A stretch of DNA of 64,000 nucleotides from Raillietiella orientalis (GCA_036172245.1 JAYWIR010000023.1:620001-684000); one strand, 5' to 3'. Positions 15,841 through 21,800 are shown, numbered from the stretch's first letter. The notes: generated by a model from the letters alone, not told the origin. A program made the numbers and translations.

Positions 15841-18800
15841 ATGGCTATGCCACCATGGCAGCCATATATGATGGGTATGCTGGCCCATCAGCAACAGTTG
15901 GCTGCTGCACAAATGGCTGCTGCACAAGCCCAAGTTGTACATTCAGCCCAAGTCCATGCAAAACTAATGCAGCAGATACCACCAATTTCCGAAGAAAAAT
16001 TGCAGGAAAAAGGTGAAAACTTGAAAACTGAGTTTTCTGGATTAAAAAATTCTGTAGTTCTGTAAAAACAATGTATTAAGTGTAAATACATTTACAAAAA
16101 CGTGTTCTAATTAAACATGGCACTAAAAGAAATCTTGTTAATTGTATCAATCTTTTATACCTTTTTGTTATTTTTCCGCTGTACGAATTTTGCTCCTTTT
16201 TTGATTATAAAATAGTCCTCTAGATGTGCAAGAGGAAAAGAATAAATGATTTTTGTCTTATAGCAAGGAAATGGCAGCAGCTACAAAGCAAGCGTTATGC
16301 TGAAAAGCGCAAGTTTGGATTTGTGGATGCACAGAAAGAAGACATGCCACCTGAACACATCCGCAAAATAATTCGTGATCATGGAGATATGAGCAGCAGG
16401 AAATATAGACATGACAAACGGGTGTATTTAGGGTAAAAAAAAGTGAAGTTGTGAATTTGTGATTACACTCCAATGATATATTTGTAGTGCTTTGAAGTAC
16501 ATGCCACATGCAGTATTGAAACTATTAGAAAACATGCCAATGCCTTGGGAGCAGATTCGTGATGTAAAAGTTCTGTACCACATAACAGGTGCCATCACTT
16601 TTGTAAACGAGATTCCCTGGGTCGTGGAACCTGTTTATATTGCCCAATGGGGGTAGGAAAGGCAAGTTAGAGACATGGAATGGAATCTCATCTGGGTATG
16701 CATTAGGACAATGTGGATTATGATGCGAAGGGAAAAACGGGATCGCAGGCACTTCAAACGAATGAGATTTCCTCCATTTGATGATGAGGAACCTCCTCTT
16801 GATTATGCTGACAACATTTTGGATGTAGAGCCACTGGAAGCAATTCAGATGGATCTGGACCCAGAAGAAGATGGCGTAGTAGCAGAATGGCTATATGAAA
16901 ATAAGCCATTATTGGATACAGTGCACGTAAATGGAAGCACATATCGTCGGTGGAATTTAACTTTACCACAAATGGCTACATTATATCGTTTAGCAAACCA
17001 ACTATTAACAGATTTAGTTGACGACAATTATTTTTATTTATTTGATCTAAGATCCTTTTTTACTGCCAAAGCTCTTAACATGGCTATTCCTGGGGGCCCA
17101 AAATTTGAACCATTGATCAAGGATCACAATCCTGGGTAATTACATGTTTATTCTCTTCTGTCATTGACTTTTATTTTTTTATATTAGTGATGAGGATTGG
17201 AATGAATTTAATGACATCAACAAAATTATTATCCGTCAACCTGTACGCACTGAATATCGAATTGCCTTCCCTTATTTGTATAACAACTTACCACATTTTG
17301 TGCATCTTTCCTGGTAAGTGAAACCTTCCCATTCAAGCCAAGCTCTCAAGCGCATGTTGCTTGTGAGCTGCCAAGAACGGGAACATTGAGAGCTTTTTGT
17401 TATACTTTGGTGATATTAGAGAACATCACCAAAGGCTGAAGAAAGCAGACAGTAATTATTTTGGTTTTTAGGTACCATACTCCAAATGTTGTGTTTATAA
17501 AGACAGAAGATCCTGATCTTCCTGCATTTTATTTTGATCCCTTGATCAATCCAATTGCTCATCGACATTCAATTAAGGTTGATATTGTTTTCACTCATTT
17601 GTTCTGTTTTATTTTTCATTTAAAGCAAATTTGCCTATAAATGCATACTACAAACTTATTTCCAGTGTGTGCCTTGGTTGATTTGTACTGTAATTTTAGG
17701 TTTATGATTTTCTTCCTGAAGACGATGATGATTTTGAGTTGCCTGACTTTGTCCAACCTCTGATGAATGATTGTCCATTGTACACAGATAATACAGCAAA
17801 TGGTAGAAGAAACTAAAAGTGTGTTTTAATTTAAACAAATTAATTTAGGAATTGCATTGCTGTGGGCTCCCAGACCTTTTAACCTCAGAGCTGGAAGATG
17901 TCGTCGTGCTATTGATGTACCACTTGTGAAGACTTGGTACCGGGAACACTGTCCACCTGGTCAGCCTGTCAAAGTTCGTGTTTCCTACCAGAAACTGCTA
18001 AAGTACTATGTTCTGAATGCACTCAAACATCGTCCTCCCAAGCCACAGAAAAAACGGTGAGTCATCCATAGATGCAGTATATATGGTAAATCTTCTAAAT
18101 AGCTATTTGTTTCGGTCATTTAAAGCTACGAAATTCTTTCAAACCACTACTTTGGATTGGGTTGAAGCTGGTCTTCAAGTGTGCCGCCAAGGGTACAACA
18201 TGTTGAATTTACTAATTCATCGAAAAAATTTAAACTATTTACATTTGGATTACAACTTCAATCTCAAGCCAGTTAAAACTTTAACCACAAAGGAAAGGAA
18301 AAAGTCTCGTTTTGGAAATGCCTTCCATCTTTGTCGTGAGATATTACGACTGACCAAACTTATTGTGGATGCCCACGTTCAGTATAGACTGAATAATGTG
18401 GATGCCTACCAGTTAGCGGATGGACTACAATATATTTTTGCTCATGTGGGCCAATTAACAGGGATGTACCGATATAAATATAAATTAATGCGGCAGATTC
18501 GTATGTGCAAAGACCTGAAGCATGTTATTTATTATCGCTTTAATACGGTGAGAACATAAAATGTGATGAATAATCCTAAACAAGTATTTAGGGTCCAGTA
18601 GGTAAAGGTCCTGGATGTGGATTTTGGGCTGCAGGCTGGAGAGTGTGGCTGTTTTTTATGCGTGGTATAACTCCCTTGCTAGAAAGATGGCTGGGAAATT
18701 TGTTGAGTCGGCAATTTGAAGGCCGCCATTCTAAAGGTGTAGCCAAAACTGTTACTAAACAGAGAGTGGAAAGTCATTTTGATCTGGAACTTAGAGCTTC

Positions 18801-21800
18801 TGTAAGTTACAACAGAGAAGGGGATATCATTTGATTATATCAGGTGATGCATGACATTTTGGACATGATGCCTGAGGGAATCAAACAGAATAAAGCTCGT
18901 ACAATCTTACAGCATTTAAGTGAAGCCTGGCGTTGCTGGAAAGCCAATATACCTTGGAAAGTAAGTGGTTGTATTAATTTATTAAGCTTTTTGTAATCTG
19001 CATGATGAGTTGTGCAGGGGTCACGAACTCAGCTGTTATGTTGGCTGGCCTCATGGAGTATCAATTTTAGAGCACTGTAATGCTCAATTGTTACTCCTTG
19101 CAGGGAAAGCATGCACTCACTGAATTCTAAACTAACAAGAAGTGTCTACAGTTCATGAAATCTGTATTTAATCGTGGTATTATTTTAGGTTCCAGGACTA
19201 CCAACTCCGATCGAAAATATGATTCTGCGATATGTCAAAATGAAAGCTGATTGGTGGACCAATACAGCCCATTATAACAGAGAAAGAATTCGTAGGGGTG
19301 CAACTGTGGATAAAACTGTGTGTAAGAAGAACCTTGGACGTCTCACCCGTTTGTATCTCAAAGCAGAACAAGAACGCCAACATAATTATCTCAAGGTGAG
19401 CTATGAAATAAATTAGAGAATGCTTGCATAAAAGGATTGATTTAGGATGGACCTTACATTAGTCCGGAAGAAGCTGTTGCTATTTACACCACAACAGTTC
19501 ACTGGCTTGAATCAAGACGCTTTGCACCAATCCCATTTCCTCCCCTTTCCTATAAACATGACACCAAATTGTTGATACTTGCGTTAGAGCGTCTCAAAGA
19601 AGCATATAGTGTAAAATCTCGGTTGAATCAGAGCCAAAGGGAAGAACTTGGTCTTATTGAACAGGCATATGATAATCCCCATGAAGCATTATCTCGCATT
19701 AAAAGACATCTGCTGACCCAAAGAGCATTTAAGGAGGTACGAAAGTTGTGTAGATTGATTGCCCTTGTTGAGTTTTTATTAGGTTGGAATAGAGTTTATG
19801 GACTTGTACAGTCACCTTATCCCAGTATATGATGTGGAACCATTAGAAAAAATTACAGATGCATATTTAGACCAGTATCTGTGGTATGAAGCTGATAAGC
19901 GTCGTTTGTTCCCTCCGTGGGTGAAACCTGCAGACACAGAACCGCCTCCCCTTCTAGTTTACAAATGGTGTCAAGGAATTAATAATCTTCAGGATATCTG
20001 GGACACTTCAGAAGGGGAATGTGTTGTTCTCCTTGAGTCGAAATTCGAGAAAATGTATGAAAAAATTGATCTCACACTCCTAAACAGACTGCTGCGCTTA
20101 ATTGTGGACCATAATATAGCAGATTATATGACAGCAAAGAATAATGTAGTCATCAATTATAAGGTGAGTTAGTACTTAGGATCAACAGTCAAGTAGCAGC
20201 TGTCTCCCTTAGGATATGAATCATACAAATTCATATGGAATTATTCGTGGGCTCCAGTTTGCATCGTTTATAGTTCAATATTATGGCTTGGTTTTGGATC
20301 TACTGGTGCTGGGCCTACAACGAGCTTCAGAAATGGCAGGACCCCCACAATTACCAAATGACTTTCTTACTTATCAAGATATAGCAACTGAATCAGCTCA
20401 TCCCATTCGATTGTTTTGTCGTTACATCGATCGTGTGCACCTCTTTTTTCGGTACAGATTTAGAATTTGAATGATTCAAAATTGCGGTACAGATTTACAG
20501 CTGAAGAAGCACGGGAGCTCATTCAGCGTTATTTGACAGAGCATCCAGACCCAAATAATGAGAACATAGTAGGTTACAATAATAAAAAGTGTTGGCCTCG
20601 TGATGCACGCATGAGGCTTATGAAGCATGATGTGAATCTGTGAGTATATAGAAGAAAAGTAGAAATAACAATCTTAATGTAGAGGTCGTGCTGTTTTCTG
20701 GGATATCAAGAATCGATTACCACGTTCTGTGACTACCATCCAATGGGAAAATAGTTTTGTTAGTGTGTATTCAAAAGACAACCCTAATCTGCTTTTCAAC
20801 ATGGGAGGTTTTGAGTGCCGTATCCTACCTAAAGTAATTGTGTTTTGTTTTATCTTATTCATTATACATTCATTATCTGAATAGTGCCGTATGACCCATG
20901 AAGAGTTCACCCACAAGGATGGAGTGTGGAACCTGCAAAACGAAGTTACCAAAGAAAGAACTGCCCAGTGCTTTCTTCGTGTTGATGATGAAAGCATGCA
21001 GCGTTTTCATAATCGTGTACGTCAAATTTTGATGGCTTCAGGTTCCACCACGTTCACAAAGGTTTGGTATTTAAAAGAATAGTTTCAAAATGCTATTGTG
21101 TTGTGCATAGATTGTCAACAAATGGAATACAGCACTGATTGGTTTAATGACGTACTTCCGTGAAGCTGTTGTGAACACACAAGAATTGCTGGACCTGCTC
21201 GTGAAATGCGAAAACAAAATTCAGACTCGTATCAAAATTGGTCTCAACTCAAAAATGCCTTCCCGTTTTCCACCTGTTGTGTTTTACACACCTAAAGAGC
21301 TTGGTGGCTTGGGCATGCTTTCCATGGGCCATGTGCTTATTCCCCAATCTGACTTACGCTGGTCTAAGCAAACAGATGTGGGGATCACACATTTCCGATC
21401 AGGAATGAGCCATGATGAAGATCAAGTAATTCCTAATCTTTATCGCTATATTCAGCCATGGGAAGCAGAGTTTATTGATTCTCAGCGTGTTTGGGCTGAG
21501 TATGCATTGAAGAGACAAGAAGCCAATGCACAAAATAGGCGACTGACATTGGAAGATTTAGAAGATAGTTGGGATCGAGGTATTCCACGTATCAACACCT
21601 TGTTCCAGAAGGACAGACATACTTTGGCCTATGACAAGGGATGGCGTGTTCGCACAGATTTCAAACAGTATCAAGTCTTAAAACAAAATCCTTTCTGGTG
21701 GACACACCAGCGCCATGATGGCAAACTTTGGAATCTCAATAATTACCGAACAGATATGATTCAAGCTTTAGGAGGAGTAGAAGGAATTCTTGAACATACT

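Follow-up and report, generated by a model that had tools for sequence, protein, structure and literature searches.

The 64,000-nucleotide (nt) stretch of the Raillietiella orientalis assembly analyzed here (GCA_036172245.1 JAYWIR010000023.1:620001-684000; hereafter the window, with positions counted from its first letter) contains a gene for the core spliceosomal protein PRP8, two introns of which probably host guide RNAs for spliceosomal small nuclear RNAs (snRNAs): a candidate box H/ACA small Cajal body-specific RNA (scaRNA) for U2 in intron 5 and a candidate box C/D RNA for U6 in intron 11. An earlier note on this DNA had linked the size of PRP8 introns to guide RNA cargo and had proposed that the gene is a spliceosome self-maturation cassette, in which PRP8 transcription and splicing deliver the guides in fixed proportion and close a feedback loop.

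We modeled PRP8 by a tblastn search of the window with a 96%-identical PRP8 protein (P0006) and subsequent refinement of the junctions, with exon 1 and intron 1 placed by eye. The model is translated as a single open frame of 2358 amino acids (aa) from an ATG at 15841 to a stop codon at 24479-24481, and Pfam PRP8 domains were found in homologues of the encoded protein. The gene and the four introns that stand out by length are given below, together with folding z scores, which compare the stability of the native fold with that of shuffled sequence (200 shuffles for the H/ACA-type RNAs), and with the fraction of G and C (GC).

15841..24481, + strand: PRP8, the host gene; 22 exons, 21 GT-AG introns, 2358 aa, from tblastn, junctions, and translation
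16013..16263, + strand: intron 1, 251 nt; no sign of cargo, z +0.39, GC 0.27
17314..17471, + strand: intron 5, 158 nt, phase 2 in the W354 codon (between ...HLSW and YH...); z -3.99, 0 of 200 shuffles as stable
17578..17699, + strand: intron 6, 122 nt; no sign of cargo, z +0.25, GC 0.29
18961..19188, + strand: intron 11, 228 nt, phase 0, following ...ANIPWK; contains the candidate C/D RNA

In order, introns 1 to 11 measure 251, 55, 54, 52, 158, 122, 46, 46, 44, 42, and 228 nt, and introns 12 to 21 measure 50, 46, 49, 41, 43, 51, 49, 48, 44, and 45 nt. The rebuilt gene model thereby reproduces the count in the earlier note: 17 of the 21 introns are 41-55 nt long and the outliers have 251, 158, 122, and 228 nt, while the interval singled out there runs from 17314, the first base of the 158-nt intron, to 19188, where the 228-nt intron ends. 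Very short introns are the rule in this region rather than a peculiarity of PRP8, since the gaps in the tblastn alignment of MED27, a neighboring gene, are also ~45 nt. The claim that candidate guide cargo explains two of the four outliers holds as well, with a U6 guide that matches the SNORD94 consensus and a U2 guide that resembles the fly case in its pocket and in its intronic setting. The other two outliers, introns 1 (251 nt) and 6 (122 nt), fold no more stably than their shuffles (z +0.39 and +0.25). Introns 5 and 11 would be long because each must hold an RNA gene of ~130 nt besides its splice signals; outside the cargo there remain 27 nt in intron 5 (158 - 131) and 96 nt in intron 11 (228 - 132). 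The GC of intron 5 is 0.41, and that of the short PRP8 introns is 0.20-0.45.

Candidate guide RNAs in introns 5 and 11

The candidate in intron 5 nearly fills its intron, starting 10 nt past the 5' splice site and stopping 17 nt before the 3' splice site. Its predicted parts are these.

17324..17454, + strand: candidate box H/ACA scaRNA, ~131 nt; two-hairpin fold, z -4.16, predicted ends
17326..17383, + strand: 5' hairpin with internal loop; pocket strands AAGCCA and GCCAA, the 3' pocket strand SNORA21-like (18.1 bits)
17383..17389, + strand: hinge with the H-box-like ACAUUGA, 13 nt past the top of the 5' pocket and aligned by cmscan to the SNORA21 hinge AGAGuGA
17392..17446, + strand: 3' hairpin; lower stem GCUUUUU/AGAAAGC, upper stem CUUUGGUGAU/AUCACCAAAG, apical loop with AGAG
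17398..17404, + strand: 5' strand of the 3' pocket, UGUUAUA, of which UGUU(A) complements Drosophila U2 (56)57-60
17435..17439, + strand: 3' strand of the 3' pocket, GCUGA, which complements Drosophila U2 50-54 and starts 14 nt before ACA
17449..17451, + strand: ACA box, 2 nt past the 3' hairpin; predicted mature 3' end at 17454, 3 nt later

None of the 200 shuffles of 17324-17454 was as stable as the native sequence, and the minimum free energy (MFE) and centroid folds agree. The elements stand in H/ACA order, a 5' hairpin with an internal loop being followed by an 8-nt hinge, a 3' hairpin, and AG-ACA-GUA, and the distance from pocket top to box is 14 nt for the 3' pocket (17435 to 17449) and 13-14 nt for the 5' pocket. 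The Cajal body (CAB) box of H/ACA scaRNAs is ugAG in the terminal loop; in the candidate, the 3' loop has AGAG (17418-17421), and UGAG is confined to one stem strand of the 5' hairpin. Matches to H/ACA families in Rfam are weak (SNORA21, 18.1 bits; SNORA13, 14.6-20.7 bits), and we rejected that to SNORA13, whose alignment extends into the exon.

Drosophila U2 has UCAGC at positions 50-54, then U55 and U56, and AACA at 57-60. In the comparison with this U2, which is that of the fly and not the host species' own, GCUGA pairs with 50-54 and UGUU(A) with (56)57-60, so that U55 would lie at the top of the pocket.

A similar RNA is known from the fly. Lu et al. (2014; PMC4053861) place the H/ACA scaRNA scaRNA:Prp8 (CR43600) in the "conserved 4th intron" of Drosophila Prp8 and report homologues in Diptera and Apis, with none in Tribolium; they add that scaRNA genes frequently lie in introns of splicing-related hosts, so that a Prp8 host is "not surprising", and that the 8th intron of fly Prp8 holds mir-988. 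The RNA is 168 nt long, having earlier been estimated at 178 nt, and has an open pseudouridylation pocket in its last stem-loop (Vicinal paper; PMC4027162). The 3' primer given for it in the supplement of Lu et al. (2014; PMC4053861) carries ACTGCTGA, with GCTGA 14 nt before ACA. The guide pugU2-55, another name for scaRNA:PsiU2-55, has been described as intron-derived and concentrated in Cajal bodies, and when assayed in yeast it pseudouridylated position 55 of U2 (Deryusheva and Gall, 2013; PMC3884663). In the tables of a 2026 preprint (PMC13228274), scaRNA:PsiU2-55 is a 178-nt record at chr2R:12161125-12161303 (-), and a Prp8 mRNA site at chr2R:12160849 (-) lies 276 nt from it on the same strand. 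Because these coordinates and the 178-nt length agree, we take scaRNA:Prp8 and scaRNA:PsiU2-55 to be one gene.

The candidate in intron 11 combines a perfect C box with a guide much like that of SNORD94.

18986..18994, + strand: external 9-bp stem, 5' half GCUUUUUGU, paired with 19134-19142 in the MFE fold of 18985-19145
18997..19128, + strand: candidate box C/D RNA, ~130 nt, SNORD94-like by Rfam match and box anatomy; predicted ends
19002..19008, + strand: C box AUGAUGA, perfect; 1 of 29 RTGATGA matches in the window
19010..19022, + strand: antisense element UUGUGCAGGGGUC, whose core GUGCAGGGGU differs by 1 base from the SNORD94 consensus GCGCAGGGGU
19023..19026, + strand: D' box variant ACGA; the SNORD94 consensus has CGGA at this offset
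19028..19035, + strand: 8-mer CUCAGCUG, identical to the SNORD94 consensus and at equal offset; 2 occurrences in the window
19055..19097, + strand: internal hairpin GGAGUA...UACUCC between D' and D, from the centroid structure
19120..19123, + strand: D box CUGA, with no other CUGA in the intron; 65 nt from the 3' splice site
19134..19142, + strand: external 9-bp stem, 3' half ACAAGAAGU, in the same MFE fold

At permissive thresholds, the SNORD94 model matches 18997-19048 with 19.2 bits (gathering score 60), at an expectation value (E) of 0.016 for the intron alone, 0.94 over 13 kb, and 4.6 over the whole window. The matching segment is the first 40 positions of the consensus, with ~27/34 identical beyond the stem, and the alignment is gapless: the window has AUGAUGA-GUU-GUGCAGGGGU-C-ACGA-A-CUCAGCUG where the consensus has UGAUGA-UUG-GCGCAGGGGU-A-CGGA-C-CUCAGCUG, the agreement taking in the C box, the length of the spacer, nine of the ten guide bases, the offset of an xxGA D' box, and the 8-mer CUCAGCUG. 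The 9-mer G[CT]GCAGGGG has a single occurrence on the two strands of the window, 3 nt past this C box, and the pattern of C box plus guide was observed once against 0.00 expected (100 shuffles). With the single CUGA lying 112 nt downstream, the C/D RNA would be ~130 nt long; the SNORD94 model has 137 positions. The external 9-bp stem encloses the C and D boxes at distances of 7 and 10 nt.

In box C/D RNAs, the antisense element has at least 10 nt and ends one base before D or D', and the target lies opposite the fifth base upstream. With D' at 19023-19026 this base is 19018, which in the cmscan alignment is in the SNORD94 target register. With the conserved U6 sequence, 19010-19022 would form 13 pairs, 2 of them G·U. 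For 19106-19119, ahead of the D box and considered as a second guide, fly U1, U2, U4, and U5 offered no convincing complementary segment. In vertebrates, SNORD94 directs 2'-O-methylation of U6 at C62, which belongs to the catalytic stem-loop (PMC6894857).

We therefore favor, at a probability of roughly 0.72 as judged from sequence, the reading that PRP8 hosts two candidate intronic guides, a U2-55 H/ACA scaRNA orthologous to that of the fly and a U6-C62 C/D RNA, with ordinary host co-expression. What we observed are the sizes of the introns, the anatomy of boxes and stems, the agreement with the SNORD94 consensus, and an intron position and pocket motif in common with other PRP8 loci; expression, mature ends, the targets in the host species, and orthology are what we infer here. 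In such an arrangement, both RNAs would be freed when the PRP8 pre-mRNA is spliced, the intron debranched, and its ends trimmed by exonucleases down to the assembled small nucleolar ribonucleoprotein. The H/ACA particle from intron 5 would pair its 3' pocket with U2 around the equivalent of fly U55 and direct pseudouridylation there, and in the C/D particle from intron 11 the C-box-proximal antisense element and D' would place the methyltransferase on U6 C62, as in vertebrate SNORD94. The link to PRP8 would be the usual co-expression with a host gene, with no dedicated feedback device.

PRP8 loci in metagenome contigs and the competing readings

For comparison, a protein-guided scan of metagenome contigs, with the exon between introns 5 and 11 as query, provided 80 PRP8 loci (523 kb). 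In 70 of the 80, the protein alignment is continuous through each of the two intron positions. One locus, L002, has a 339-nt intron at the codon and phase of intron 5 in the window; it is the 4th intron of that gene if the first is as in the window, and the fly host intron is likewise the 4th. It contains a canonical H/ACA RNA at 2400-2536 (z -3.41, 0/200 shuffles as stable), with an H box AAAGGA, an ACA followed by 3 nt, and a 3' pocket with TTGTTAT on its 5' strand and GCTGA on its 3' strand, 13 nt before ACA. The 7-mer TTGTTAT is common to the window and L002, and both stems differ in sequence between them. In a second locus, L001, whose protein alignment begins at this exon boundary, the intron has the same position and phase, and GCTGA-N9-ACA precedes the 3' splice site by ~45 nt. 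The intron is the same and the single-stranded guide bases are kept while the stems have changed, which is the pattern expected of orthologous guides.

The U6 guide has a different distribution. A C box with the U6-guide motif was found in 0 of the 80 loci, where the bare 9-mer occurs nine times and never beside a C box; L001 and L002 have no intron at the position of intron 11, and among the loci that do, none has a C box with the U6 guide. A scan of the metagenome for the SNORD94-like pattern gave 0 matches, as did Rfam at gathering thresholds in 20 PRP8 loci. L002 and, more weakly, L001 have an H/ACA-like RNA with the pocket motif, and since none of the 80 loci has the U6 guide, the U2 and U6 guides are not a conserved unit in this sample.

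Further loci have unusual sequence at these positions. L015 (3298-3577, identical in L027) has a 280-nt intron at the codon and phase of intron 5 in the window, the only intron in its first ~1900 codons; the locus looks fungal, with the yeast-like branch site ACTAAC, and the intron has an H/ACA-like 5' hairpin followed by AUAUCA and later ACA, with pocket strands unlike the GCUGA/UGUU guide and a stability no better than that of shuffles (z -0.67). L023 (1751-2025) has an intron at the intron-11 position (after ...IPWK) with a long inverted repeat, AAGGCTGGTTTATAATA ... TATTATAAACCAGCCTT, that resembles a small transposon. In L009 (1032-1222), tandem repeats of ~34 nt extend past the same exon boundary up to the contig end.

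Several results weigh against two orthologous guides in PRP8. Neither candidate attains its Rfam gathering score, and at those thresholds Rfam has 0 matches across the whole window; for the C/D RNA, both the 19.2 bits and the window-scale E count on this side. The 3' 90 positions of the SNORD94 model do not align to the C/D RNA, whose 3' two-thirds is unrelated, no complementary stretch lies directly beside its C and D boxes, and no UGAUGA-like C' box was found between D' and D. In the H/ACA RNA, the hinge CAUUGAGA lacks a strict ANANNA H box, the nearest motifs, ACAUUG(A) and AGAGCU, having no A at position 6, and in the U2 register two to three guide bases (17402-17404) stay unpaired, which is not textbook geometry. 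GCTGA-N8-9-ACA is not rare by itself (6 in the window against 4.3 expected), and the candidate in L001 is no more stable than its shuffles (z -0.16). MAFFT and RNAalifold gave no usable alignment of the RNAs from the window, L002, and L001, and a covariance model of the window H/ACA RNA had no significant match in the 80 loci; with filters off, L001 went undetected and L002 (2402-2537) reached only 5.7 bits (E 2.9). Local alignments of intron 5 with both primers published for fly scaRNA:Prp8 are at chance level, being equaled by 56-69% of shuffles, and the identity of scaRNA:Prp8 with scaRNA:PsiU2-55 is our own deduction and not a statement in a paper. Because alignment, covariance model, and primer comparisons fail, the case for orthology rests on position and short motifs.

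These results lead to the question whether functional RNAs are present at all, and whether they are of the classes proposed. That one or both long introns lack a functional small RNA, the matches and structure being due to chance or to decayed relics of small nucleolar RNAs (snoRNAs), would accord with the missing gathering matches, the SNORD94 E of 4.6 at window scale, the imperfect H box and missing adjacent terminal stem, and the failure of the covariance model to tie the window to L001 and L002. We think this unlikely, however, since the C box plus guide is found where 0.00 are expected and shares its D' offset and an extra 8-mer with a model built from vertebrates, the H/ACA fold has z -4.2 against ~0 in the control introns, and the guide motifs are kept at the same intron elsewhere despite changed stems. 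Alternatively, the H/ACA RNA might be a SNORA21-like guide for ribosomal RNA (rRNA) rather than a U2 guide: SNORA21 aligns to the 5' hairpin with a similar hinge, the 3' pocket strand there reads CUGCCAAG against the consensus CuGUCAAG, and fly pugU2-55 could also modify a 28S fragment in yeast, as reported by Deryusheva and Gall (2013; PMC3884663). But SNORA21 reaches 18.1 bits where gathering is at 80, the 5' pocket strand has a 3-nt insertion relative to SNORA21, and the element conserved across loci is the 3' pocket, which fits U2, so that an rRNA guide seems quite unlikely. Least probable of all, in our judgment scarcely credible, is that the hairpins at 17392-17446 and 19055-19097 are microRNA (miRNA) precursors after the manner of mir-988. 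Fly Prp8 does host that miRNA, both hairpins have stems of ~20 bp, and cmscan gives a weak mir-9 match at 17395-17444 (21.4 bits); yet that alignment drops 34 model positions, scores on both strands, and puts the mature sequence across the loop, no miRNA family matches the 228-nt intron at E <= 10, and both hairpins stand where an H/ACA and a long C/D RNA would have them. The mir-9 match itself was rejected for its large deletion and its matches on both strands.

The two-guide reading leaves the relation between guides and host to be explained. A dedicated spliceosome self-maturation cassette, in which PRP8 output meters the U6 and U2 guides, feeds back on splicing, and is perhaps linked to SNAPC4, would suit the fact that both cargo RNAs aim at spliceosomal snRNAs from within a gene for a core spliceosomal protein, that the linkage of U2 guide and PRP8 is kept in the fly, in L002, and probably in L001, and that SNAPC4 lies in the window. 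The features on which the earlier note had built its argument are nevertheless general ones: any intron-encoded snoRNA is delivered once per host transcript and depends on splicing, so neither property is special here. The U6 guide is found in 0 of the 80 loci, L001 and L002 keep the U2 guide and have no intron at the second position, Lu et al. (2014; PMC4053861) report no homologue of scaRNA:Prp8 in Tribolium, PRP8 and SNAPC4 have three unrelated genes between them, and the sequence shows no regulatory element or dosage evidence. Nothing in it thus supports a dedicated cassette that delivers guides stoichiometrically and closes a feedback loop, and we regard such a cassette as very unlikely; co-regulation of scaRNAs in splicing-factor hosts is, moreover, already published (Lu et al., 2014; PMC4053861).

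A broader proposal is that PRP8 is a long-lived, selected host of snRNA guides, whose supply would be coupled to PRP8 output in a way that matters for assembly; to this we assign a small chance. On this view, one PRP8 intron would have kept the U2-Psi55 guide over deep arthropod divergences, persisting even in L001 and L002, where most other PRP8 introns were lost, and the lineage of the window would have gained the guide for the U6 catalytic stem-loop as a second one. If the proposal were true, the H/ACA-like RNA of L015 and L027 would date the cargo-bearing intron back much further.

SNAPC4 and the surroundings of PRP8

The genes beyond PRP8 that bear on the SNAPC4 argument are as follows.

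29122-29472, + strand: VPS29-like metallophosphatase exon, neighboring gene
30271-34074, - strand: WD40-repeat exons, neighboring gene
39401-40336, + strand: MED27, neighboring gene
42029..42528, - strand: SNAPC4 orthologue, Myb-repeat exons, with Pfam Myb domains, colinear with human SNAPC4 residues 309-456 in a PDB sequence search

In the PDB sequence search, the Myb exons match human SNAPC4 at E 3e-19 and 3e-25 and c-Myb at 1e-13 and 2e-10; a homologue search with one SNAPC4 Myb exon returned nothing. They lie ~16-17.5 kb beyond the PRP8 stop, in keeping with the ~16 kb of the earlier note, which had also allowed that the proximity may be coincidental. Coincidence is the parsimonious view, because three unrelated genes, the VPS29-like, WD40, and MED27 genes, intervene. 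The best named relatives of MED27 are from mayflies (62% and 58% identity), followed by a damselfly, copepods, and decapods, which points to an arthropod with no near relative among the named entries of that database.

Other features of the window include a fragment of a reverse transcriptase open reading frame at 9347-10506 (-; Pfam RVT_1, E 4.5e-7), probably from a decayed retrotransposon upstream of PRP8, and a GC of 58% in the first 2 kb, compared with ~37% elsewhere. Near-palindromic hairpins at 39007-39072 and 36167-36260 are matched on both strands by unrelated miRNA models, the best being mir-3910 (35 bits, E 0.003, well under gathering), and have the look of generic inverted repeats rather than of a known miRNA. 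A weak C/D match at 35306-35403 (+; snR66, 28.7 bits with gathering at 65, E 2), which falls between MED27 and the WD40 gene, might be another snoRNA. A SNORA5-like match at 15857-15981 (+; 22.6 bits) is almost certainly spurious, as it falls in Gln/Ala-rich coding sequence of PRP8 exon 1.

Relation to known intron-hosted guides

Insects are already known to have a U2 guide in PRP8, and with the window the case reaches an arthropod that is more distant. The open-access literature searched had no U6 guide in PRP8 and no SNORD94-like arthropod U6 guide hosted there. The analysis adds two probable annotations, an orthologue of the fly U2-Psi55 scaRNA still in a Prp8 intron and a SNORD94-like U6-C62 guide far outside the vertebrates. 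It also shows that, in a gene whose introns are mostly 41-55 nt long, unusual length is an inexpensive clue to RNA genes within introns (two of the four outliers here). If the host linkage is functional, PRP8 would be a handy model for the effects of host-guide co-expression on the maturation of small nuclear ribonucleoproteins. As it stands, the finding widens a published pattern and reveals no new mechanism.

Compared with fly scaRNA:PsiU2-55, the candidate in intron 5 is likewise a box H/ACA RNA in a Prp8 intron with its functional pocket in the last stem-loop, GCUGA 14 nt before ACA, and complementary bases on either side of U2-55; unlike it, the window RNA has ~131 nt rather than 168 nt and no detectable overall similarity to the ends of the fly RNA, and it is without the three additional bases (ACU) that the fly and L002 RNAs have ahead of GCUGA. 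The mir-988 of fly Prp8 is also small-RNA cargo of a Prp8 intron, but of another RNA class. With vertebrate SNORD94 (U94, RF00613), the candidate in intron 11 shares the C box, the 3-nt spacer, the 10-nt guide, the D' offset, CUCAGCUG, and an unusually long body (~130 nt against 137 model positions), and it differs in scoring 19.2 bits against a gathering score of 60, in an unrelated 3' two-thirds, and in its host, PRP8; human SNORD94 lies in another gene. Like intron-hosted snoRNAs and scaRNAs in general, the two candidates would come as one RNA per intron, be released by splicing, and be co-expressed with a host of the same pathway, whereas the presence in one host gene of guides for two different snRNAs, U2 and U6, sets the window apart from them.

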